Positions 5,823 through 18,423 of a stretch of DNA of 32,000 nucleotides are shown here, piece after piece. Both the position numbers and the translations under genes were made by a program. The stretch covers positions 813,465 to 845,464 of the forward strand of contig CP006915.1 of NCBI GenBank assembly GCA_000503915.1, given 5' to 3'. The stretch comes from Candidatus Saccharimonadota bacterium (GTDB lineage Bacteria > Patescibacteriota > Saccharimonadia > Saccharimonadales > Saccharimonadaceae). Under the pieces are notes generated by a model, which ran no database searches, was not told the origin of the DNA, and was given only the letters and a program-made list of their open reading frames with translations. How positions within the stretch are numbered: the first letter of the stretch is position 1; each line of letters begins with the position of its first letter.

Positions 5823-6551
5823 TTAAGACGCAAAACTGTCGGGGTGTTCACTCTGGTAGCGTTCGAGCGCTGCTCGGGCGGCTTGTTGTTGGGCAATTTG
5901 TTTGCTGTGTCCTTTACCCTTACCCTTCATTTTGGCGTTCACAAAGACACCGAGCGTAAACAACTTGTCATGATCGGGACCGATCTCCTCGAGCACTTTA
6001 TACTGTGGTGTGGCGCCATCGATGCGCTGCGAGACTTCCTGCAGATGCGACTTTGGGTCGCGCCAGCTACCCTCTTCGAGGATGGGCTCCAGTTTGCTGG
6101 CGATGTGTTTCAAAATAAAGCTTTCGGCATCTTTGTAGCCGCGCTCCAGATAGATCGCACCAATGACGGCCTCAAACGAATTCGCCAAGATCTGTTGGCG
6201 CGCTCGTTCACTGCCGTGCTTCTCGCCTTTGCTCATACGTAGCAAGGACTCGTAACCCAGCTTATCGCCGGCTTCACCGATACTTTCCGTCCGCACCAGT
6301 GCAGCGCGCCAGCTGGTCAATGTACCCTCCGGTTCGCTGTAATTGTTGTAGAGAAAGTCGGTAACGGCCAGCTCCAACACTGCATCACCGAGGAACTCCA
6401 AACGCTCATTGTGCTCAGACACACTTTTTTTGTGTTCGTTGACGTAGCTTCGGTGCGTGAGAGCCGTGACGAGGAGATCAATATTCTTAAATTCAAAACC
6501 CAGCTTCTCGCGAGCAAATTCTTGGTAGGGAGCTACGGACATACCTGACAT
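5823..6551 (-). CDS. rnc: Ribonuclease III.
   Basis: The NERLEFLGDAVLE signature plus a C-terminal dsRBD. The start overlaps the upstream stop by 1 nt (TAATG). Confidence 0.95.
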   Translation of the reverse strand: MSGMSVAPYQEFAREKLGFEFKNIDLLVTALTHRSYVNEHKKSVSEHNERLEFLGDAVLELAVTDFLYNNYSEPEGTLTSWRAALVRTESIGEAGDKLGYESLLRMSKGEKHGSERARQQILANSFEAVIGAIYLERGYKDAESFILKHIASKLEPILEEGSWRDPKSHLQEVSQRIDGATPQYKVLEEIGPDHDKLFTLGVFVNAKMKGKGKGHSKQIAQQQAARAALERYQSEHPDSFAS

Positions 6552-7048
6552 TACAGATTCTCCTGGCGAATTCGTTTCATCCCGAGCAGCATCAGCTTGC
6601 CGATGTCTTCGTACTCAATAGCATCGAGCGCATCGCTAAATGAAAACCATTTGATACCGTTCATCCATTCTTCCTTCTTAATCGCGTTGGTATTACCCAT
6701 CGCTTTTACAAGGTAGATTTGTGTCGTCATGAGCACCAACTTGTCGATGCGGCGATAACGGAAATGGATTTTGCCGAGCCAACCGAGGACTTCCACCTCT
6801 GTTAGTCCAGCCTCTTCACCAATCTCACGCTTTGCAGTCTCCTGCGCGGTTTCACCTGGTTCAATATGTCCTTTCGGAATCGTCCAGCGGTCTTTGGCGT
6901 CTTGAATCAGCAGGATCTCTATCTCGCCCTGTTTGTTGCGACGATAAACCACCCCGCCAGCCGTCGGCTCGCGCACGATTTCCTGAATAGAGGGTTTTTT
7001 ACCGCGATTAAAATATTTCTTGAATTTACCGAGTTGAGGTGTTGGCAT
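6551..7048 (-). CDS. NUDIX hydrolase.
   Basis: Nudix box GHIEPGETAQETAKREIGEEAGL. Confidence 0.9.
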   Translation of the reverse strand: MPTPQLGKFKKYFNRGKKPSIQEIVREPTAGGVVYRRNKQGEIEILLIQDAKDRWTIPKGHIEPGETAQETAKREIGEEAGLTEVEVLGWLGKIHFRYRRIDKLVLMTTQIYLVKAMGNTNAIKKEEWMNGIKWFSFSDALDAIEYEDIGKLMLLGMKRIRQENL

Positions 7049-7487
7049 CGTTTTTTCCTTCTACAAGCGTTCGATAGGCTGTCCCGAGGACGCCGTTGAT
7101 GAACTTGCTTGAGTTTTCAGAACCAAATGCCTTTGCCAGTTCAACCGCTTCGTTGATCACTACCTTTGGCGGTACTGTATCAGCTTGATGAAGTAGCTCG
7201 TAGAGCCCCATTCGGAGGACGTTGCGGTCGATCCGGGCGATCTGATCGATCGGCCAGCCCGGTGCCATCTCTTGTAGCTTTTCATCCATCTCGGCCTGGT
7301 ACTCTAAGACGCCATTTACCAGCGTGCTGACAAATCCCTTGTCATCGATTGCTTCCTGGTAGCGCTCAATATTACGCGTCAGTATCTCGGTGAGGTCAAC
7401 GCTTTCATCAGCTGACGACGTACGAAACTCGTACTCGTAGAGCGTTTGCAAAGCGACGATTCGCCCAAGATGTCGATTTGAGGCCAT
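7026..7487 (-). CDS. nusB: Transcription antitermination factor NusB.
   Basis: 153 aa, RIVALQTLYEYEF...AIINEAVELAKAFG-type NusB pattern. Overlaps the downstream NUDIX gene by 23 nt. Confidence 0.9.
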   Translation of the reverse strand: MASNRHLGRIVALQTLYEYEFRTSSADESVDLTEILTRNIERYQEAIDDKGFVSTLVNGVLEYQAEMDEKLQEMAPGWPIDQIARIDRNVLRMGLYELLHQADTVPPKVVINEAVELAKAFGSENSSKFINGVLGTAYRTLVEGKNDANTSTR

Positions 7488-7529
7488 GGTATTGGTTCTT
7501 TCTGATTATGTTAAGAGCTGGCTAAAGTA

Positions 7530-7679
7530 TTAGCTGGCTTTCTTTTTGCCGGTCTCACGCTTGGTAGTGTGGACTTTGACTGGTGATTTGGCGTTTACCA
7601 TACGCGCCAGTTTGAGGCGTAGGTGGCTACGACGTAAACCCGTCTTGCGCGGGCTTGATTGTTTCTTTGGCTCTGCCAC
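7530..7679 (-). CDS. rpmF: 50S ribosomal protein L32 (Cys-less form).
   Basis: Hand translation gives a 49-aa ORF: GTG start preceded by GAAGGAGAA, then VAEPKKQSSPRKTGLRRSHLRLKLARMVNAKSPVKVHTTKRETGKKKAS. This matches the L32 pattern A-x-P-K-K-x-x-S-...-RRSH. It is below the ORF-track size cutoff. Confidence 0.7.
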   Translation of the reverse strand: MAEPKKQSSPRKTGLRRSHLRLKLARMVNAKSPVKVHTTKRETGKKKAS

Positions 7680-7756
7680 TTGAATGTTCTCCTTCTCAGG
7701 TTGATGTAAACTTACCCTGCATTATAGCGGTTCCCGGCTGTTTTCTCAAGCAGTTA

Positions 7757-7785
7757 TTGACAACAATTCATATAAATGTTATTAT
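7757..7785 (+). promoter_or_regulatory. Promoter (TTGACA, 17-nt spacer, TATTAT) ending 6 nt before the ATG, implying a leaderless or near-leaderless mRNA.
   Basis: TTGACA at 7757-7762, TATTAT at 7780-7785, ATG at 7792. Confidence 0.5.
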
Positions 7786-7791
7786 GGTAAT

Positions 7792-8151
7792 ATGAAAGAT
7801 GTGTTGGATAAAACCCCGAACAAGCTTCGGACTTCGACGGTAGCTATTGTAGCTGTCATGAGCGGTATCGCACTTAATAGCTGCACCGCCGCTGACAAAG
7901 GAACTGCACCAACTCCCGCCTGTGCTATCCACATTGAGCGGGGTGATACGCTCTATAGTATCGCCGCTGCGAGCGACATGGATATACGCGAAGGCATTGC
8001 CGAGATGAAACAGATTAATTCAGGTGTCGACGCCGGTCATCTAAGCATTGGAGACGATGTGGCGATCAGCTCACAGATGTGTCAGGATATTATTGGCAAC
8101 AAAAAAAATACCTTGGATCTGCGCCCACTACACGACGATCTCAATCAGTAA
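7792..8151 (+). CDS. LysM-domain lipoprotein.
   Basis: Signal peptide with a lipobox-like LNSC, then a LysM motif (IERGDTLYSIAAAS...INSGVDAGHLSIGDDVAI). The 3' end overlaps the leuS stop by 11 nt (convergent). Confidence 0.75.
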   Translation: MKDVLDKTPNKLRTSTVAIVAVMSGIALNSCTAADKGTAPTPACAIHIERGDTLYSIAAASDMDIREGIAEMKQINSGVDAGHLSIGDDVAISSQMCQDIIGNKKNTLDLRPLHDDLNQ

Positions 8152-11044
8152 TTACAATACTCACCAGCCGGCCGGGAACGTAAATCGTCTTGGCCGGTTT
8201 TTGTGTACCGACAAATTTCTGAACATTTTCATCAGCCAGAGCCGCCGCGATAGCATCTTCTTTACTGACATCTTTAGCGAGCTCGAGTTTGGCACGTACT
8301 TTCCCGTTTACCTGAACAACGATTGTCGCTGTTTCGCTAGTCGTGAGCGCCTCATCCCACGATGGCCATGGTGCAGTATCGAGCGACTCTTCGTGTCCGA
8401 GCTGCTGCCAAAGTTCAGCGCTGAGATGTGGCGCAAATGGAGCGAGTAGCTGGGTCATGGTCTCTAATACGTCACGCCATGGTTTATCACTAAATCCATC
8501 AGCTTTTAATTTGTATAGTTCATTCGTTGCTTCCATCATAGCTGCAATGGCGGTATTGAAACTCAATCGGTGCAAGTCTTCGGTGACTTTTTTCGTCGTC
8601 TTATGTTGCAAACGACGAACCGCATCGTCCTGCTGGGTGTCCGCTACTGTGTCAGCTGCTAGATATTCCTGTGTCAATGTCCAGACGCGCGTCAGGAAAC
8701 GATAGACACCGGCTAGGCCATTAGTGCTCCAGGCTGAATCTTCTTCGATTGGACCAACAAACAGCAGGAAGGTGCGTAATGCATCAGCGCCGTAGCCTTG
8801 GTCGATAATGTCGAGTGGGTCAATGACATTGCCAAGGCTTTTACTCATCTTGCGGCCGTCCTCGGCTTGGATCAGGCCGTGGTAGACTAGTTTCTTAACT
8901 GGCTCCTTGCTCGGTACCAGTCCCATGTCGTAAAAAACGTGATTCCAGAAGCGGACGTAGAGCAAATGCGCGACCGCATGGTCGCCACCAACATAGTAGT
9001 CAACCGGTGTCCAGTAGTCGGCCTTTTCTTGCGACCAGGCTTGCTGGTCGTTCTTCGGGTCGGTGTAGCGCAGCAAATACCAGCTACTACAGGCGTAGCC
9101 GTCCATGGTATCAGTTTCACGCTTTGCTGGGCCACCACACTCAGGACAGGTCGTATTAACCCAGTCGTCGACGCGCGCCAGCACTGATTTACCGTCACCT
9201 TTTGGGGCGTAATCTTCTACTTCTGGCAGCACCACTGGCAGCTGATCTTCTGGCACCGCCACGGCGCCATCTTTTTCACAATGAATGATCGGAATCGGCG
9301 CACCCCAATAACGCTGGCGAGAAATCAGCCAATCGCGCATTTTGTAGGTGGTCATCATCTTGCCTGTTCCCTGCTCTTCCAGCCAGGCAACAACCTCTTC
9401 ACGCGCCTCACTCGTCGGCATGCCGTCAAAAGCTCCAGAATTTACCAGTACACCCTCATTGGCATATACGGCTGTCTTTTGATCTAGATACGCCAGCCAT
9501 ACTTTTAGATGCGTCTGCCAGGTAAGCTTTTTAGCTACCTGATCTTTTGTAATCCACTCAATAGTGTGCTTGCCCTCATCAACTTCACTTCTGATTTGAG
9601 TTTTTGAGCCAAGCATAACTTCATATGCAGCACCTCTATAGCGATGATTCACCCCTTTGTCCGGACGATAGGCAATACCGGAAATGATTGGGAAAATTTT
9701 TCTGACACTTACAATATCTGTATAGCCCGTCTCCTCAGCTACTTCCCTACGTAGTCCGTCTTCCGTCGAAGAGTCTTCTTGTTCAATCCCTCCCCCAACG
9801 AAGTGCGTATCGGTCACCCCACCTTCTGTTGAAGTTTGTAGCAAGTAATTACCCTCGCCATCGCAGATGACTGCATCCGCCACGTTTCGATCGATAGTCT
9901 CAGCGTCTAACTCTGGCTCAAAGTGATCGCCACTAATATGATGCTCAGCAACCACTTGCACTACTGGCAATTTGTACTTCTCTGCAAATTCATAATCACG
10001 TTCGTCATGAGCCGGCACAGCCATGATAGCGCCCGTGCCGTAGCCACCAAGGACATAGTCGGCAATCCAGATAGGAATTTTTTCTCCCGTGGCTGGATTG
10101 ATGGCATAGGAGCCGGTAAATACACCTGTTTTTTCTTTGCCTTCACTTTGACGCTCAATCTCAGACTTTTTCAGCGCCGTTTTTACATAAGCGTCGACAT
10201 TTTCGTGCGTCTCATCAGTCGTCAGTGCCTCGACTAGCGAATGCTCCGGCGCAATAACCATGAAGGTAGCACCGAAAATCGTGTCGGGACGCGTCGTAAA
10301 TACGGTGAGCGTTTCATCATGCTCGGCGACCAAGAACTCAATCTCGGCACCCTGGCTTTTGCCGATCCAGTTGGTTTGGGCAGTTTTGATCTTTTCCGGC
10401 CAGTCGAGCGCCGGGATTTCTTCGAGCAGCGCATCGGCATAGTCAGTAATCTTGAAAAACCATTGGCGAATATTCTTTTTTTCAGCCAGTGGATCGTCGG
10501 GACCATCGTGGCGCCAGCACTTGCCATTGATAACCTGCTCGTTGGCAAGCACCGTTTGATCGATCGGACACCACCATTGCAACGAATCTTTCTGATAAGC
10601 CAGGCCACGCTCAAAAAACTTGGTAAAAACCCATTGGGTCCAGCGATAGTAGTCGGGGTCGGACGTATTGATCTCGCGCGACCAGTCGATACTGGCGCCG
10701 AGCCGTTTTAGCTGATGAGTAAAATTGGCGATATTGTCTTTGGTCACTTTGGCCGGTGCCATGCCGGTCTTGATCGCGTAATTTTCAGCGGGCAGTCCAA
10801 ATGCATCCCAACCCATCGGGTTCATGACATTGCGGCCGTGTGCACGTTGAAAACGGGCAATTGCATCGACAACCGAATGTTCCATAGCATGGCCAGAGTG
10901 CATACCGGCGGCACTTGGGTACGGGAACATAGGAGAAATATAGAATTTTTCCCTATCGCCGCCGTCGCTTGCCTGGTAGCGGCGCTCGTCCGCCCAAACT
11001 TTTTGCCAGCCAGGCTCGATCTCACTCGGATTGTATCGCTGCAT
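8141..11044 (-). CDS. leuS: Leucine--tRNA ligase with an inserted NUDIX-like domain.
   Basis: 967 aa. HIGH-region variant (PYPSAAGMHSGHAMEH), CP1 editing domain, AHDERDYEFAEKYKLP, KMSKS. There are about 165 extra residues at positions roughly 366-530. Confidence 0.97.
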   Translation of the reverse strand: MQRYNPSEIEPGWQKVWADERRYQASDGGDREKFYISPMFPYPSAAGMHSGHAMEHSVVDAIARFQRAHGRNVMNPMGWDAFGLPAENYAIKTGMAPAKVTKDNIANFTHQLKRLGASIDWSREINTSDPDYYRWTQWVFTKFFERGLAYQKDSLQWWCPIDQTVLANEQVINGKCWRHDGPDDPLAEKKNIRQWFFKITDYADALLEEIPALDWPEKIKTAQTNWIGKSQGAEIEFLVAEHDETLTVFTTRPDTIFGATFMVIAPEHSLVEALTTDETHENVDAYVKTALKKSEIERQSEGKEKTGVFTGSYAINPATGEKIPIWIADYVLGGYGTGAIMAVPAHDERDYEFAEKYKLPVVQVVAEHHISGDHFEPELDAETIDRNVADAVICDGEGNYLLQTSTEGGVTDTHFVGGGIEQEDSSTEDGLRREVAEETGYTDIVSVRKIFPIISGIAYRPDKGVNHRYRGAAYEVMLGSKTQIRSEVDEGKHTIEWITKDQVAKKLTWQTHLKVWLAYLDQKTAVYANEGVLVNSGAFDGMPTSEAREEVVAWLEEQGTGKMMTTYKMRDWLISRQRYWGAPIPIIHCEKDGAVAVPEDQLPVVLPEVEDYAPKGDGKSVLARVDDWVNTTCPECGGPAKRETDTMDGYACSSWYLLRYTDPKNDQQAWSQEKADYWTPVDYYVGGDHAVAHLLYVRFWNHVFYDMGLVPSKEPVKKLVYHGLIQAEDGRKMSKSLGNVIDPLDIIDQGYGADALRTFLLFVGPIEEDSAWSTNGLAGVYRFLTRVWTLTQEYLAADTVADTQQDDAVRRLQHKTTKKVTEDLHRLSFNTAIAAMMEATNELYKLKADGFSDKPWRDVLETMTQLLAPFAPHLSAELWQQLGHEESLDTAPWPSWDEALTTSETATIVVQVNGKVRAKLELAKDVSKEDAIAAALADENVQKFVGTQKPAKTIYVPGRLVSIVITD

Positions 11045-11100
11045 AACTATCTGTTAGTATACCATCGATTCACCACCGAGAAAACTGAGGCGTTGAGCCG

Positions 11101-12387
11101 CTACTCGGTGAGGTTGCCGAAAAACTTTTCTTTGGTCTGCTGCCACTGCGCTCCTTGGCGCACCAGCTGATGGTCGTCGCTCGTTTCGTGAAGCAAGATC
11201 TTTAAGGCTTCCTCCGCATAAACATTGTTTTGCGAGCCTTTAGCAAGGACAACCGCACCACTTTCGACAACACCGTTGACAAAACCGCCAGCCTGCAATG
11301 CGGAGCGGAATGATTTCACTTGGCAACCGCGTGCCCGAGCAGCCGGTGCCAGATATTTCTCCGACTCCGGCCCAATCGTCACCACCCAGGCGAGTAAGCT
11401 CGGGTCGCATAGCGTACCGAGTGTCTCGTGCTCAGTTTGGGACGAGCTGCCCAATTCATTCATGTCACCCAAGATGGCGATACGCTGCGGCGCCTGCAAA
11501 TTATAAAGCGTCTGGAGTGCCGCGCTGGCCGATGCCGGACTCGAATTGTACGTGTCATCGATCAAGATAGAATCCTGGACACCGCGGAGTACATTCATTC
11601 GCCCATTCACCGCTACGATATCTTCCACTGCCTCGGCTACGACACGAATATCCATGCCAAGTTTCAGAGCCACGGCGACGGCAGCCGCCACTGGTCGGAG
11701 CGAATGCTCGCCCAGTACACGCACATTTGCGACCACGCCTTCTTTCAAGTCGGGTGCGTAAAAATATGCCTCATAGCCATGATTGATATCGAAATCTTTT
11801 ACCTCGATCCGATACTCTGCCGACCCAGTCGTGCCGTAGGTGTTCACCTCAGGGTTGGTCAAATATTGCGAGAACCGGCCATCGATATCATCCCGGTTAA
11901 TGAGAGCGGCCTGGCTAAAATTCGCCAGCGTCAATTCCTCCTGGGCAACGGTCTCAATACTGCCAAGAAACTCCATATGCTCTGGCGTAACTGCCGTCAC
12001 CACACCCAAAAATGGTTTAAGGTACGTGCCGAAATGAGCGATCTCACCCGGGTGATCAGTACCCAGCTCCTGGACAATCACATCGACATCGCTCGGCTGA
12101 TGGATTCGCTTCTTAGCGGCGCGAAATACCTGCAGCCACGCTATCACACCATGAACATTCTCCGGATAGGTGATACCTAAAATACCGAGCGGAGCGCTGA
12201 GATGCGTATTGTGATTGCTGTCTTCCATTCGGACACGCAATGACTTTGCAAGTACTGTCGCGATCGCAGTCTTGGTACTGGTCTTGCCGACACTGCCACC
12301 GACGGCAATAAGCCTAACTTCGGGATGCGCCTTAAAGTAGGCGCGAACGTAACTTTCTAATTTTTTTTGGACAAATCGTTTAAACAT
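11101..12387 (-). CDS. murF: Mur ligase family protein, probably UDP-MurNAc-tripeptide--D-Ala-D-Ala ligase.
   Basis: GGSVGKTSTK P-loop and DDTYNSSPASASAAL, typical of MurF (DDxYNANPxS). Confidence 0.8.
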   Translation of the reverse strand: MFKRFVQKKLESYVRAYFKAHPEVRLIAVGGSVGKTSTKTAIATVLAKSLRVRMEDSNHNTHLSAPLGILGITYPENVHGVIAWLQVFRAAKKRIHQPSDVDVIVQELGTDHPGEIAHFGTYLKPFLGVVTAVTPEHMEFLGSIETVAQEELTLANFSQAALINRDDIDGRFSQYLTNPEVNTYGTTGSAEYRIEVKDFDINHGYEAYFYAPDLKEGVVANVRVLGEHSLRPVAAAVAVALKLGMDIRVVAEAVEDIVAVNGRMNVLRGVQDSILIDDTYNSSPASASAALQTLYNLQAPQRIAILGDMNELGSSSQTEHETLGTLCDPSLLAWVVTIGPESEKYLAPAARARGCQVKSFRSALQAGGFVNGVVESGAVVLAKGSQNNVYAEEALKILLHETSDDHQLVRQGAQWQQTKEKFFGNLTE

Positions 12388-12450
12388 AGACTGTATTAAT
12401 CATACGTGATTTGCCCAGGAATTACGAATCACGCGTTGTTATCGTCGGTT

Positions 12451-14544
12451 CTATTTTAGTCCGTTTGTTGTGTTAAGATCGACTCGTCTAAGAAGCTGAG
12501 CGTTCAGTGCGACGATGACCGTCGAAGCTGACATGAGTACTGCACCAACGGCAGGAGCGAGCACGATGCCTGCACCGTATAAGATACCGGCAGCAAGTGG
12601 TATGGCGAAGAGGTTATAGCCGGTTGCCCAGGCTAAGTTCTGCACCATCTTAGTGTACGTCTTCTTTGACAGGTTGATCACTTTGACAACATCACTCGGG
12701 TCACTTTTTACCAAAATGATGTCGGCTGATTTTATCGCCACGTCGGTACCGGCACCAATCGCAATGCCGATGTCGGCCTGCGTCAGGGCAGGCGCGTCGT
12801 TGATGCCATCGCCAACCATGGCCACCTTTTGTCCGTTTTTCTGCAAAGCTTTAACTTTGGCGGCCTTGTCTTCCGGCCTCACTTCGGCAAAATACTCATC
12901 CAAGCCGAGCTGCTCCGCGACACTGGCCGCAACTTCATTGCTATCGCCAGTGATCATAGCGGTTTTTATACCCAATGCTTTGAGTGCTTGAACAGTTTGC
13001 TTACTTTCAGCCCGTACCATATCGGCAAGCGCTAGCGCACCGACGACGGTCGAATTGGTCATGAGATATACCTCGGTCTTGCCCTCTTTGGCCGCCTGTT
13101 TGACTGCTTTAGCGATTTCGGTCGGTACGGTTAGTTGATGTTCCTCGATATAGCGGTAACTGGCCGCAATATACACGTCGCTGCCGTGCAAGGTACCTTG
13201 TACACCCACGCCGGGCAGAGCCGTAAAGTTCGTAACTTTATCGAGGTGTACGCCTAGCTCTTCGGCCTTGCGGACAATACCCTTCCCAACAATGTGCTCG
13301 CTATTTTGTTCCAGGCTGGCTGTCAGGTGTACGATGTCTTCTTTGCTATAGCCTTTTGCTGCCCAGATATCAGTGACACCATGCTCGCCCTTAGTGAGCG
13401 TGCCGGTTTTATCAAATAACACCCAGTCTAGTTTGCGAGCCGATTCAAGCGCCAGACGTTTGCGAATGAGTAGTCCATTGCGAGCCGACAAAGCACTCGA
13501 TATTGAGACAACAAGCGGTATGGCCAGTCCCAGCGCATGCGGACAGGCGATGATCAGCACTGTCACCGAGCGCTCAAGCGCAAAGCCAGCATCCTTCGCG
13601 ATAAGCCAATAAAGAAAGGTAACGACTGCAGTCACGATAGCGATAATCGTCAGATAAAATGCCGCTTTGTCGGCCAATATTTGCACGTTGGATTTTGACT
13701 TCCCCGCTTCAGCCACGAGGCGCATGATGCCGGCCAGTGCCGTATCCGCGCCGAGCTTCGCTACTTTGACCGTGAGCGAACCGTCTTGGTTGCTCGTACC
13801 GGCGACTACTTCGTCGCCACTCATTTTGCTGACGGGCTTGCTCTCACCGGTGATGGCCGCTTCGTCGACCGACGAACTCCCTTCCGTGATCACGCCGTCT
13901 ACCGGGATACTAGAGCCAGGGCGTATCAGTACCAGATCGCCGACTTTCAACGTGCTTACCAGCACTTGCTTCGGTTGGCCGTCAACTAGTTTTTCCGCCA
14001 TGTCAGGGAGGAGTTTCGCGATCGCATCAAGCGCACTTTCGGCCTTGGCGACCGACGCCATCTCCAGCCAGTGTCCGAGCAGCATGATCGTCACTAAGGT
14101 TGCTAGCTCCCAGAAAAAGCCGTCGCCCTTGATCACAAATAACGTCGCGACACTATAGCCATACGCGGTAATAATCGCTAGGCTGATCAATGTCATCATG
14201 CCCGGAAGCTTAGCTTTTAGTTCGCCCCACGCCCCTTTTATAAATACTAGGCCGCCGTAAAAGAAAATGATGGTACTAAGTATGAACGGCACGTACTGTG
14301 AACCCGGAAAGGCTGGCGGCGCGAAGTGAAACCACTGTTGGATCATTTCCGAATAGGCCAGTACCGGCAACGTCAGTGCTAGACTCAGCCAAAACCGATC
14401 CTTAAACATCGCTACAGAATGGCCAGCATGCTTGTCGTGCTCCTGGTGTTCATGGTGTTCGTGATGTTCGTGATGTTCGTGATGTTCGTGACCGCTAGGA
14501 TGATGTGCTTGGTGTTGATGTGTCTGGTGCGAGTGGTGCATCAC
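12451..14544 (-). CDS. copB: Copper-exporting P1B-type ATPase with a His-rich N-terminus (CopB-like, CPH motif).
   Basis: N-terminal HEHHEHHEHHEH repeat, CPH in a TM helix (IIACPHALGLAIP), DKTGTLT, GDGINDAP. GTG at 14544 or ATG at 14541 could be the start. Confidence 0.9.
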   Translation of the reverse strand: MMHHSHQTHQHQAHHPSGHEHHEHHEHHEHHEHQEHDKHAGHSVAMFKDRFWLSLALTLPVLAYSEMIQQWFHFAPPAFPGSQYVPFILSTIIFFYGGLVFIKGAWGELKAKLPGMMTLISLAIITAYGYSVATLFVIKGDGFFWELATLVTIMLLGHWLEMASVAKAESALDAIAKLLPDMAEKLVDGQPKQVLVSTLKVGDLVLIRPGSSIPVDGVITEGSSSVDEAAITGESKPVSKMSGDEVVAGTSNQDGSLTVKVAKLGADTALAGIMRLVAEAGKSKSNVQILADKAAFYLTIIAIVTAVVTFLYWLIAKDAGFALERSVTVLIIACPHALGLAIPLVVSISSALSARNGLLIRKRLALESARKLDWVLFDKTGTLTKGEHGVTDIWAAKGYSKEDIVHLTASLEQNSEHIVGKGIVRKAEELGVHLDKVTNFTALPGVGVQGTLHGSDVYIAASYRYIEEHQLTVPTEIAKAVKQAAKEGKTEVYLMTNSTVVGALALADMVRAESKQTVQALKALGIKTAMITGDSNEVAASVAEQLGLDEYFAEVRPEDKAAKVKALQKNGQKVAMVGDGINDAPALTQADIGIAIGAGTDVAIKSADIILVKSDPSDVVKVINLSKKTYTKMVQNLAWATGYNLFAIPLAAGILYGAGIVLAPAVGAVLMSASTVIVALNAQLLRRVDLNTTNGLK
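14443..14487. repeat. 9-bp tandem repeat (5 units) encoding the (H-E-H)n tract of CopB.
   Basis: ctggtgttc atggtgttc gtgatgttc gtgatgttc gtgatgttc, read directly. Confidence 0.85.
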
Positions 14545-16185: not shown

Positions 16186-18423
16186 CTAGTCAATAGGGAT
16201 ACGAGGAATGATCTTTCCTATCCAAGCCGGAAGCCACCAAGCCTTCTTGCCCATCAGGCGCATCACTGCCGGAACAATCGTCATCCTCACCAGGAACGCG
16301 TCAATAAAGACACCGACCGCCAGCGCGAAACCGAGTGCTTGGACGACGCTATTGTCGTTTGTAATAAAGCCAGCGAAGACTGCGACCATGATCAGCGCCG
16401 CTGCCGTCACGACTTTACTCCCATGGCTGAAGCCGTTTATGATGGCCTTTTGAGGATCGTCCGTATGCTCATGCGCTTCACGTATACTCGAGACGAGGAA
16501 AAATTGATAGTCCATCGCCAGACCAAAGAGGATGCCGAGTGCCATTAGTGGTAGGAAGCTAACGATCGGCGCCGGCGCTTCGGCAATGCCAAACCAACCC
16601 CACTGGAATACTGCCACCAGCGCGCCGAACATCGCCGCTACCGACAACAAGTAGCCGAGCGTTGCTTTGATTGGGATCAGTATAGAGCGAAAGGCGATAA
16701 CGAGTAGCAACAGCGATAGGCCGACAACAACGGCGAGATACACCGGTAGAGCGCTGGCCAGCTTGTCGTTGATATCAATGAGCATAGCGGTACTGCCAGT
16801 AACGGTAAACGTCGCACCTTTTAGCCATTTCTGCTGATTGTCTTGATCACGTAGGGCGTTTATAAGATCGGTCGTAGCCTTATCGGAAGGACCGGAGCTG
16901 GGAATAACCTGCAGTACACCGACGGTACCATCCTCGTTGATCATTGTCGGCAGTACCGTCTCGACATTGTTAAGCTTGGCAACCTCATTGCCGACTTTTG
17001 TCAGATGGAGGCGCTTGCCATACTCTTCAGCCTGAGCAGCTGAAATTTGCCCGGCTTTGGCTTGGTTCTGGGTTTTAGCGGCAACCAGCTCGGCGCTACT
17101 GACAGGCTCGAGCCCTTCAACCACCACCATGAGCGGCGCATTGTAACCTTCACCAAAGCTTTTGGTTACCGTATCGTAGGCTTTACGCTCGGTCGTATCC
17201 GCGGCAGCATATTGGTCGGTAGACATGCCTAGCTCCAGGGAGGGGGCAGGTAGCGCGATGGCGACAATGACGATCAGTGCCGCAAAAATGGCGACGAGCG
17301 GACGCTTCGTAACCAGCACACCCCATTTGTACCAAATATGTTTTCGCTCGTCGGTGGCATTATTTGCCTGAGCCGTGTCAGCTTTTCGCCTTTGCCGTTT
17401 GTGTATAATTTTCGAGCCGGCCAGCCGGAATAATGCCGGCAGGATAGTGATCGCCATTACCGCGGCAGCAGCTACAGCGGCAGCGGCAGTCAGCCCCATC
17501 GTTGTAATGAAAGGTATCCCGACGACGCTCAGTGCCGCCAGTGCGATTAGCACCGTGGCAGCAGCAAATATGACGGCATTGCCGGCAGTCATAGTCGCCC
17601 GTATAGCCGCCTTTTTGCGAGCCATACCATCACTCAGGTAGCTACGGTAACGACTGATAATAAATAACGAGTAGTCTATACCTACGGCGATACCGAGCAT
17701 CGCTCCGATCGCTGGCGTCGATGTGTTGACATCGATAACCTGACTCAACCCAAACAGCCCCGCCATTGTCGCGCCAACTGCCGTAAAGGCAATCAGCAGC
17801 GGCATACCGGCTGCCACCAATGACCCGAACGTCACTATGAGCACCAAGAACGCCACAAGTACACCGACCGCTTCACCAGCGCCTAGTGGTTGGTGCGAGA
17901 ACTTGTTAACCAAGTCACCGCCAGTCTCTATGGCTATACCCTCGCCTCTCGCGTCATCGACGATCGACTGAACTTGGTCGGTGGTAGATTTTTCGATTGC
18001 ACCGGATTCTTCAACTAGCTGCACCTGGATAAGTGCGGCTTTTTTATCCTGGCTGATAGCGCTCGGATTTTCAAAGGGGTTCACCGCCCGCTTTACACCC
18101 TCAACTTCTGAAACGTCTTTAGTTAACGTGGTGATTTGACTTTTATAGCTCATAACCGTGCTATCACCAGCAACCGAAACGACGATACTACCAGCACTTT
18201 TGCCGGATTCTGGGAAATACTTGCTCATTGTCTCGACTCCGGTTTGTGCCTCAGTGCCAGGTACGGTCATAGCGTTGCCCGGCGCCTTGTAAAAGGTAGC
18301 TGCCGCTATCGCCAATAGTGCGACCACGACGACCCAGGCGAGAATTGTTCGCCACGGATGTTCAAAACTAAATTTACCGATCTGTTTTAGTAATTTTTGC
18401 AATTGTTCCTCCTGTTTTTTCAA
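16186..18423 (-). CDS. MMPL/RND-superfamily membrane transporter.
   Basis: 745 aa with two 6-TM bundles and large loops, and a typical MMPL N-terminus (GKFSFEHPWRTILAWVV). Confidence 0.9.
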   Translation of the reverse strand: MKKQEEQLQKLLKQIGKFSFEHPWRTILAWVVVVALLAIAAATFYKAPGNAMTVPGTEAQTGVETMSKYFPESGKSAGSIVVSVAGDSTVMSYKSQITTLTKDVSEVEGVKRAVNPFENPSAISQDKKAALIQVQLVEESGAIEKSTTDQVQSIVDDARGEGIAIETGGDLVNKFSHQPLGAGEAVGVLVAFLVLIVTFGSLVAAGMPLLIAFTAVGATMAGLFGLSQVIDVNTSTPAIGAMLGIAVGIDYSLFIISRYRSYLSDGMARKKAAIRATMTAGNAVIFAAATVLIALAALSVVGIPFITTMGLTAAAAVAAAAVMAITILPALFRLAGSKIIHKRQRRKADTAQANNATDERKHIWYKWGVLVTKRPLVAIFAALIVIVAIALPAPSLELGMSTDQYAAADTTERKAYDTVTKSFGEGYNAPLMVVVEGLEPVSSAELVAAKTQNQAKAGQISAAQAEEYGKRLHLTKVGNEVAKLNNVETVLPTMINEDGTVGVLQVIPSSGPSDKATTDLINALRDQDNQQKWLKGATFTVTGSTAMLIDINDKLASALPVYLAVVVGLSLLLLVIAFRSILIPIKATLGYLLSVAAMFGALVAVFQWGWFGIAEAPAPIVSFLPLMALGILFGLAMDYQFFLVSSIREAHEHTDDPQKAIINGFSHGSKVVTAAALIMVAVFAGFITNDNSVVQALGFALAVGVFIDAFLVRMTIVPAVMRLMGKKAWWLPAWIGKIIPRIPID

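Follow-up and report, generated by a model that had tools for sequence, protein, structure and literature searches.

Few enzymes are as conserved, or have been studied as thoroughly, as the aminoacyl-tRNA synthetases. In leucyl-tRNA synthetase (LeuRS), the editing domain, connective peptide 1 (CP1), is an insertion within the Rossmann fold, and the enzymes of Thermus thermophilus (1h3n, 2bte) and E. coli (4aq7) have in common a set of core motifs and domains, an editing-site aspartate and the TTRPDT motif, which is known to mark the LeuRS editing site. A precedent for a class Ia synthetase with an extra enzyme domain is isoleucyl-tRNA synthetase fused to an N-acetyltransferase (NCBIfam NF040702, ileS_w_GNAT). 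Here, we describe a fusion that differs from it in both the enzyme family (Nudix, not GNAT) and the host synthetase, namely, a Nudix domain inserted into the LeuRS of a Candidatus Saccharimonadota bacterium (NCBI GenBank assembly GCA_000503915.1). The gene, leuS, lies in a stretch of 32,000 nucleotides (nt), hereafter the window (contig CP006915.1, positions 813,465 to 845,464 of the forward strand). Its product shares the above motifs and domains with the T. thermophilus and E. coli enzymes but has a 165-residue Nudix domain where the CP1 loop of Thermus is 12 residues long. This insert was absent from every solved LeuRS structure matched in PDB.

In a 2026 survey of domain insertions, the editing domain of LeuRS is classed as insertion-exclusive, and "zero instances of host function" are recorded for it (PMC13114784). 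Searches of open-access papers and bioRxiv gave no report of Nudix domains within LeuRS or another aminoacyl-tRNA synthetase of the Candidate Phyla Radiation (CPR, Patescibacteria); the first-pass annotation of this DNA had likewise been aware of no described Nudix insertion in an aminoacyl-tRNA synthetase. Public databases do hold sequences of this kind, named leucine--tRNA ligase and with their Pfam domains precomputed. Thus, the sequences are already known, whereas the phenomenon is undescribed as far as we searched. The features of the gene and its insert are as follows (window coordinates; aa, amino acid positions in LeuRS; AF2, AlphaFold2):

9455..9949, minus strand: inserted segment (aa 366-530), a complete Nudix domain between two short linkers (Pfam, T. 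thermophilus alignment, AF2)
9512..9886, minus strand: Nudix fold core (aa 387-511), from the Pfam PF00293 match
9722..9796, minus strand: Nudix box region (aa 417-441), GGGIEQEDSSTEDGLRREVAEETGY, with R433, E434, E437, E438 and G440 on the predicted catalytic helix
8141..11044, minus strand: leuS, bacterial-type LeuRS, host of the insert (TIGR00396, 1h3n match, AF2 model)
10889..10900, minus strand: HxGH (HSGH, aa 49-52), class I signature; H49, G51 and H52 invariant in 106 homologues
9950..10372, minus strand: N-terminal part of CP1 (aa 225-365), upstream of the insert; PF13603 covers aa 225-371 with profile positions 2-146 of 185
10280..10297, minus strand: threonine-rich TTRPDT motif (aa 250-255); T251, R252, P253, D254 and T255 invariant
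9995..10012, minus strand: AHDERD (aa 345-350) with the conserved editing-site Asp347; H346, D347, R349 and D350 invariant
9335..9454, minus strand: C-terminal part of CP1 (~aa 531-570, end approximate), downstream of the insert; second PF13603 stretch
8837..8851, minus strand: KMSKS loop (aa 732-736), invariant in 106 homologues

The first-pass annotation had proposed a whole Nudix fold at 9455-9949, to be verified by a profile search of residues ~366-530, an alignment with T. thermophilus LeuRS and a structure prediction. The coordinates correspond exactly to aa 366-530, the motifs that it quoted all lie where it had placed them, and each of the three analyses bore the proposal out. The Pfam profile PF00293 matched the insert alone with an E-value of 1.6e-11 and 44.8 bits, and with 41.1 bits within the whole protein (gathering cutoff, 21.1). 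The match spanned profile positions 4-127 of 134 (124 positions) and was far beyond chance. When the insert alone was modeled with AF2 (101-sequence alignment), the mean confidence (predicted local distance difference test, pLDDT) was 90.4 and the predicted template-modeling score (pTM) 0.84; strands and helix followed in the expected strand-helix-strand order, and a helix at insert residues 62-74 lay on the Nudix box. A Foldseek search of PDB with this model returned 440 matches at E <= 0.001, of which the top 50 were all Nudix proteins; the best template-modeling (TM) score was 0.78 (normalised to the target), and identity to solved structures was 13-23%. AF2 and Foldseek agreed on an alpha/beta/alpha Nudix fold with its helix on the box. 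In the model of the full-length protein, the Nudix blocks scored 89-96, compared to 77 for the first linker (aa 371-380) and 76 for the second (aa 521-530). Since the linkers scored lower while the Nudix blocks were confidently predicted, the model fits a discrete domain held at two adjacent points. Residues 366-530 are thus an independently folding Nudix domain, inserted in frame in a surface loop of CP1.

The position of the insert required one correction, since it had first been placed after the end of CP1. The interval between the alignable segments is 12 residues in T. thermophilus (363 to 376), as compared to ~160 in the present protein (366 to 526), and the alignment resumes with query residues 526-727 against T. 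thermophilus 376-579. Among Saccharibacteria relatives without an insert, a loop of 11-13 residues occupies the same place. The CP1 editing-domain profile PF13603 (231 bits in the present protein) is interrupted by the insert at approximately position 146 of 185, yet it runs uninterrupted up to position 183 in P0145, a relative with no insert at this canonical site. Because the profile is split here and continuous in that relative, the Nudix domain lies inside CP1, 18 residues past the editing Asp347, and the GVLVNSG segment that follows it is still part of CP1. The insert is preceded by AHDERDYEFAEKYKLPVVQVV (aa 345-365) and followed by GVLVNSGAFDGM (aa 531-542), which opens the C-terminal part of CP1. 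With CP1 itself being an insertion in the Rossmann fold, a Nudix domain in CP1 amounts to a three-level nesting.

The host synthetase has every appearance of an intact enzyme. The reading frame is continuous over 967 aa and includes HIGH-like and KMSKS motifs, as originally stated; its product matched NCBIfam TIGR00396 (leuS_bact) with 1009.9 bits (cutoff, 548.4) and, in Pfam, every LeuRS domain. The best sequence match in PDB was T. thermophilus 1h3n (827 bits). The full-length AF2 model had a pLDDT of 89.8 and a pTM of 0.78, and matched the E. coli LeuRS-tRNA complex 4aq7 with a TM score of 0.88 (normalised to the target). Across the 106 homologues, the HxGH, KMSKS and TTRPDT motifs and the HD-RD editing segment were all invariant. 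Since the synthetase appears intact and under constraint, the view of the first-pass annotation that this is a functional fusion rather than a pseudogene is supported. The leucine-specific domain is absent upstream of KMSKS, where T. thermophilus residues 580-636 have no counterpart. The Mycoplasma mobile enzyme likewise has no leucine-specific domain, and a GKDG tetrapeptide stands in for it (PMC3643597). In the window, 8837-8866 (aa 727-736) reads ...LIQAEDGRKMSKS where the domain would be, a stretch that recalls the mycoplasmal GKDG.

Two trivial origins of such a gene were considered. A chimeric assembly join, which the first-pass annotation had suggested excluding, or a decaying pseudogene might be suspected from the GC content, which falls to 0.45 over the insert from 0.51-0.56 in the flanks. 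However, across 8280-13344, both junctions included, the window matches the independent assembly GCA_003537595.1 (contig DPRQ01000012.1) at 100% identity; elsewhere, this contig departs from the window by 15 mismatches and indels. Moreover, the same architecture occurs in >100 independent homologous clusters from unrelated samples, the reading frame is uninterrupted, and purifying selection acts on host and insert alike. We consider an artefact to be extremely improbable. Inteins, too, lie in frame in conserved essential genes, are patchy among close relatives and occupy several sites. In contrast to them, the LeuRS insert has no endonuclease domain and is an ordinary metabolic hydrolase fold under purifying selection. 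An intein or other selfish splicing element was rejected, because the junctions (QVV followed by AEHH, with Ala366 first, and YANEG, preceding Val532, followed by VLVNSG) have neither an N-terminal Cys, Ser or Thr nor a C-terminal His-Asn with a nucleophile, and the fold is Nudix, not Hint.

A near-consensus Nudix box had been reported for the insert, a description that needs one correction. The REVAEETGY segment fits REUxEExGU exactly, whereas the Gx5E half is non-canonical, having one extra residue and a Ser at the Glu position. Across the wider family, the consensus is the canonical box of 23 residues, Gx5Ex7REUxEExGU (e.g., GGIEKGEDPLEAARREIVEEPGY). Among the 106 homologues, R433, E434, E437, E438 and G440 were conserved in >= 90%. 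We also aligned 30 diverse copies embedded in LeuRS, which share 19-45% identity with the present insert (alignment A3, in which residue 1 is LeuRS aa 373). A Gly of the GG pair, the three box Glu residues and K91 were invariant in it, and R14, G47, G68, N94 and W125 were >= 90% conserved. The strict REx2EExG motif was kept by 197 of the 225 copies extracted; most of the others alter the Arg only, which is K, Q or M in some second copies. In the one close pair with DNA (L008 and L009, from a CPR lineage other than that of the window), the ratio of nonsynonymous to synonymous substitution (dN/dS) of the Nudix domain was 0.047 at a dS of 0.8, as compared to 0.004-0.068 for segments of the synthetase core. 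Selection on the Nudix domain of this pair is, therefore, as strongly purifying as on the synthetase core.

Compared with other members of the Nudix superfamily (2azw from E. faecalis, the Aquifex Ap4A hydrolase 3i7u, NudI, YmfB, RppH), the LeuRS domain has the same fold, REUxEExGU helix and GG pair, but it has conserved residues of its own (R14, K91, N94 and W125) and is mostly an internal insertion rather than a free protein. A curated subfamily assignment (MutT, NudI, RppH, ADPRase or YtkD) was rejected because all NCBIfam scores fell far under cutoff, and no RppH or Ap4A equivalog model (PRK00714 models and similar) in NCBIfam matched the insert at E <= 0.1. The solved proteins closest to the A3 profile were AvrM14-A/B (8dp8, 8dp9; E 1.7e-11), over ~120 residues that include a K-x-x-(N/Q)-R motif and the C-terminal Trp; the match depended on the query, being weak with the profile of the window's own subtype (Q-type; alignment A4, E 8.8e-4) and absent with the window's insert alone. 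AvrM14, a free-standing effector secreted by the eukaryotic flax rust, has been described as an mRNA-decapping Nudix enzyme (PMC12425495). The LeuRS domain belongs to a distinct Nudix subfamily, and most of its detectable relatives lie within leuS genes of Patescibacteria.

The insertion is far from unique to this genome. A survey of related lineages, another step that had been proposed at the outset, showed that >100 LeuRS clusters of Saccharibacteria carry it: ~110 of the best 120 clusters from a search with the full protein were LeuRS of 950-1140 aa with PF00293, and the source names given were all Saccharibacteria, one being Candidatus Mycosynbacter amalyticus. A HMMER search with the insert alone over 1.84 billion representative proteins found only 94 relatives at E <= 1e-3. 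Those longer than ~200 aa were mostly LeuRS or LeuRS fragments, with the Nudix domain at the matching site in a local comparison. Four proteins from this exhaustive search (P0125, P0136, P0205 and P0206) have no LeuRS part and were taken to be spurious; P0136 belongs to the SprB-repeat proteins, Ig-like domains are present in P0206, and no Pfam match was obtained for P0125. A word-indexed search with the insert alone returned nothing, although the collection contains the 100%-identical P0001 as well as ~110 LeuRS clusters with a Nudix domain. This was a false negative, and a null result from such a search with a short, fast-evolving query is no evidence of absence.

We also scanned the species-representative genomes of GTDB with the pattern RRE[VI]xEE[TV]G[YF], derived from alignment A4, for which counts of loci are lower bounds. 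The pattern also catches ordinary Nudix genes of Microbacterium and Streptomyces. Among the matches listed, the Nudix domain was embedded in LeuRS at 38 of 80 loci; at another (L026), LeuRS was merely adjacent, on the opposite strand. The titles of the embedded loci among these matches cover at least six named CPR groups and include Saccharibacteria, Patescibacteria group, Taylorbacteria, Moraniibacteriota, Magasanikbacteria, Parcubacteria and Paceibacterota. Some Nudix-LeuRS loci are titled Gammaproteobacteria, Bacillales or Bdellovibrionales; in the case of L008, the label is doubtful, because its LeuRS is nearer to the Thermus enzyme than to that of E. coli.

Nudix domains occupy three different sites in LeuRS, with up to three copies per protein. 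In addition to the canonical site, where P0122 has two tandem copies, they are found at the entry to CP1 (equivalent to ~aa 215-245; P0131, P0134, P0137, P0147, P0159, P0160, P0165 and P0169) and in place of the Zn-knuckle segment (aa 631-640; P0141, P0145, P0157 and P0178). Such repeated, independent capture by LeuRS suggests that proximity to the synthetase is advantageous. Several LeuRS carry further enzyme domains in frame. These include a Ham1-like NTP pyrophosphatase and a Ser-hydrolase with the Nudix domain (L008:1174-5337), a Nudix and a HAD (HAD_2) domain in tandem at the CP1 site (L014:1867-5358, Magasanikbacteria), a Ser-hydrolase with a Nudix domain (P0025) and an ASCH domain with a Nudix domain (P0019). 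The maximum was five extra domains, i.e., three Nudix, an alpha/beta-hydrolase and a HAD (L011:2251-6429, Taylorbacteria). The non-Nudix inserts of Saccharibacteria LeuRS lie at the equivalent of aa 237-247, directly before TTRPDT. The alpha/beta-hydrolase segments of L008 and L009 are only 42% identical, compared to 93-100% for their flanks. One lineage of valyl-tRNA synthetase (ValRS; P0142 and P0218) also carries a Nudix domain of this subfamily, at ~aa 230-420 near the CP1 entry. A Nudix domain was present in only 2 of 120 related ValRS clusters, the relatives being named Nanoarchaeota or Woesearchaeota (DPANN archaea), and the ValRS domain may have passed between CPR bacteria and these archaea.

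Comparison with close relatives suggests how the window strain may have obtained its insert. The LeuRS nearest to it by core identity, P0002 (96%), P0003 (87-88%) and P0038 (80-86%), all have no insert and instead have the homologous loop of 11-13 residues at the site; that of P0002, as read from the alignment, has 13 residues, SGKKNENGVIVTE. In a neighbor-joining tree of the cores only, the present LeuRS was nested in this insert-less clade, and two more insert-less proteins were dispersed among Nudix-bearing ones. The leuS gene of a syntenic locus (L003; murein ligase, leuS, small ORF, nusB, Nudix, rnc, rpsP) also has no insert. When leuS of the window was compared with the P0002 allele (L001) in 90-nt segments, identity was 89-100% per segment, mostly 94-100%, except in one tract that contains the insert, where it was 64-82%:

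9032..10111, minus strand: tract of low DNA identity to the P0002 allele (gene nt 934-2013, aa 312-672; 90-nt windows)

The flank residues Q363, V365, V534 and V605 agree with the Nudix-bearing majority, and the insert-less clade has residues of its own at these positions. The most parsimonious explanation is that homologous recombination with a donor carrying the Nudix domain brought in ~1.1 kb of flanking sequence in addition to the cassette of 0.5 kb. Gain in the window strain is favored by the nesting in the tree and by the flank residues, whereas the DNA identities of the tract are uninformative on direction; the opposite event, loss of the cassette in P0002, is less favored. More generally, the insert averages 43% identity to other Saccharibacteria inserts while the cores average 70-73%, and core and insert identity over all pairs are barely correlated (r = 0.19). 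The cores of P0009 and P0107, for instance, are 92% identical and their inserts 26%; for P0004 and P0103, the values are 89% and 29%. At least two Nudix subtypes occur at the CP1 site in Saccharibacteria, interchanged between LeuRS with cores ~90% identical: a Q-like subtype (VDAIITDG.G.YLLQ...HFVGGGID) and a second one (IVKHW..DKYL.L.WKK..W.TFITGGIE.GE). The insert thus behaves as a cassette that is gained, lost or exchanged for a divergent version through homologous recombination among leuS alleles. The presence of Nudix in LeuRS is not singular; it is CPR-wide, multi-site and multi-copy, with cassette-like turnover.

The window has another Nudix gene close to leuS:

6551-7048, minus strand: stand-alone Nudix protein of 165 aa (PF00293, 68.7 bits)

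It had been called clearly different from the insert, and indeed the two have only the Nudix box in common (BLASTP E 0.012 over 27 aa). The insert was rejected as a duplicate of this gene, considering that only the box is shared, that the pI is 4.8 for the insert and 9.3 for the stand-alone protein, and that their NCBIfam neighbors differ. Those of the basic stand-alone protein are, weakly, MutT1, MutT and RppH, and it may be the cell's RppH-like RNA pyrophosphohydrolase. Its gene overlaps nusB (7026-7487) by 23 nt and rnc (5823-6551) by 1 nt. Because of these overlaps, nusB, the Nudix gene and rnc look like one operon, and their order is the same in L003.

As for function, the sequence of the LeuRS domain indicates that it is probably a catalytically active Nudix hydrolase. 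We propose that it would be a Mg2+-dependent pyrophosphohydrolase that works in cis with LeuRS and, carried on the mobile CP1, would hydrolyse an adenine-nucleotide derivative that the synthetase makes or binds. The probability of this reading as a whole is, in our estimate, ~0.4, and the assignment of a LeuRS-linked small nucleotide as the substrate is correspondingly tentative. The leading candidate would be diadenosine tetraphosphate (Ap4A) or another ApnN, formed from enzyme-bound Leu-AMP and a second NTP; a related NDP-X compound would be an alternative. Aminoacyl-tRNA synthetases make Ap4A from the aminoacyl-adenylate, and the Ap4A hydrolase 3i7u was among the best structural matches of the insert. 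A literature search gave no usable statement on Ap4A synthesis by LeuRS. A small adenine nucleotide is favored because the domain is acidic, because Ham1 and HAD domains travel with it and because Nudix domains have repeatedly been captured in LeuRS.

Several observations weigh against this proposal. LeuRS is not known to be among the strongest Ap4A producers. LeuRS with cores 96% identical have no insert, and leucylation therefore does not require it. Hydrolases of unrelated families (alpha/beta-hydrolase, ASCH) are also found in LeuRS, for which a carrier role fits as well as coupling, and free-standing, Met-initiated members of the subfamily, of 150-190 aa, exist. In the present protein, the Gx5E half of the box deviates as described above. 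No NCBIfam Nudix equivalog scored above cutoff for the insert (best, 13-16 bits; cutoffs, 80-475), and its structural matches were evenly spread over MutT-like, NudI, ADPRase, RppH and Ap4A hydrolase proteins, being no closer to 3i7u and 4s2y than to other Nudix classes.

Some of these observations would be expected if LeuRS were simply a permissive, essential and constitutive carrier of an active house-cleaning or salvage hydrolase that acts independently of leucylation. In this explanation, which fits nearly as well and which we regard as possible though somewhat doubtful, CP1 loops tolerate insertions, and their conserved flanks allow homologous recombination to spread cassettes between genomes. 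It would account for the presence of unrelated Ham1, HAD_2, Ser_hydrolase/alpha-beta hydrolase and ASCH domains at the same or nearby sites of CPR LeuRS, for the difference in insert presence between 96%-identical cores, for the swapping of cassettes (core 92% vs. insert 26%, and r = 0.19 overall), for the free-standing homologues, for the faster evolution of the insert relative to the core (43% vs. ~72% identity) and for the recombination tract around the insert. However, it leaves unexplained why the subfamily is nearly restricted to LeuRS and one ValRS lineage, both class Ia enzymes with CP1 editing domains, rather than occurring in other essential proteins, and why LeuRS acquired Nudix domains independently at three sites and retains as many as three of them. 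Moreover, two of these sites flank the editing motifs, at ~aa 237-247 before TTRPDT and at aa 365 after Asp347. The kinship with AvrM14-A/B, the best solved relative of the family profile (E 1.7e-11, aligned over almost the whole length and with the K-x-x-N/Q-R motif), points in another direction, namely, that a Nudix domain on CP1, near the acceptor end at which the 5' and 3' termini come together, would strip a 5' pyrophosphate or a cap (NAD, Np4N) from the bound tRNA or other RNA. Further profile matches to NUDT12, NudC and RppH, weak matches to Pfam Nudt16-like and NCBIfam YtkD, the insertion of ASCH, an RNA-associated fold, in some LeuRS and the presence of the subfamily at the CP1 entry of ValRS are consistent with this. 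Nevertheless, we consider an RNA-end substrate unlikely, since the AvrM14 link is weak for the Q-type profile and disappears with a single sequence, and mature bacterial tRNAs have 5' monophosphates. The strongly acidic character of the domain (pI 4.8, charge -11; for Q-type inserts, median pI 4.7 and net charge -13) is unfavorable to RNA and argues against direct binding. Finally, the basic stand-alone Nudix protein (pI 9.3) of the nusB-nudix-rnc operon, 1.1 kb away, would be the better RppH candidate.

The C-terminal domain of MutY, which is Nudix-like, sets a precedent for a Nudix fold in a non-catalytic role, here perhaps structural, tRNA-contacting, ligand-sensing or protein-interacting. 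The non-canonical Gx5E half of the present box, the K, Q or M in place of the box Arg in some second copies, and the fact that close relatives dispense with the insert could be read in this way. Against it, copies with no more than 19-45% identity to the insert have the three catalytic Glu residues, the GG pair and K91 without exception, REx2EExG is kept in 197 of 225 copies and dN/dS is 0.047; since a structural role alone would not preserve precisely the metal-binding residues, a non-catalytic module is quite improbable. A more speculative reading, and in our opinion an unlikely one, is that the CP1 of CPR LeuRS has become a docking platform for swappable hydrolase cassettes (one, two or three Nudix domains, Ham1, HAD, alpha/beta-hydrolase, ASCH), which would add a new layer of quality control or self-protection at the acceptor-end/adenylate site. 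The cassettes might then destroy misactivated adenylates, ApnN, Np4N caps or adenylate-mimicking antibiotics of the actinobacterial hosts, and their swift exchange would reflect diversifying, arms-race selection.

Elsewhere in the window, a 119-aa ORF (7792-8151, plus strand) converges on leuS, overlapping its 3' end by 11 nt, and holds a LysM-like GDTLYSIAA segment; in L003, a 127-aa gene at this place is likewise on the strand opposite to leuS. A scan of 7400-12600 for promoters and terminators found nothing above chance. Compared with L084, the independent assembly, the window carries 82 extra nt at 13345-13426, inside the ORF of a P-type ATPase (12451-14544), and ~90 extra nt at 18306-18395, near the start of ORF 16186-18423. 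L084 has no called gene over the ATPase region, and the ATPase may be frameshifted in the L084 strain; alternatively, either assembly may contain an error at this point. The N-terminus of the ATPase (14425-14544, minus strand) has a long His-rich run, MMHHSHQTHQHQAHHPSGHEHHEHHEHHEHHEHQEHDKHAGH, which is presumably a metal-binding N-terminal extension.

A second, putatively catalytic domain nested in the editing domain of a bacterial LeuRS lies outside the textbook picture of this enzyme. It is found widely across a major radiation of bacteria, with recurrent sites and copies, other nucleotide-handling hydrolases alongside and recombination in an essential gene. For protein engineering, these inserts represent a natural map of the sites in LeuRS that tolerate insertion. 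If the Nudix domain acts on products of LeuRS or on the bound tRNA, it would represent a new kind of synthetase-linked sanitation or proofreading. Otherwise, Nudix-bearing LeuRS would be a natural case of an essential gene carrying mobile enzyme cassettes in genome-reduced symbionts.

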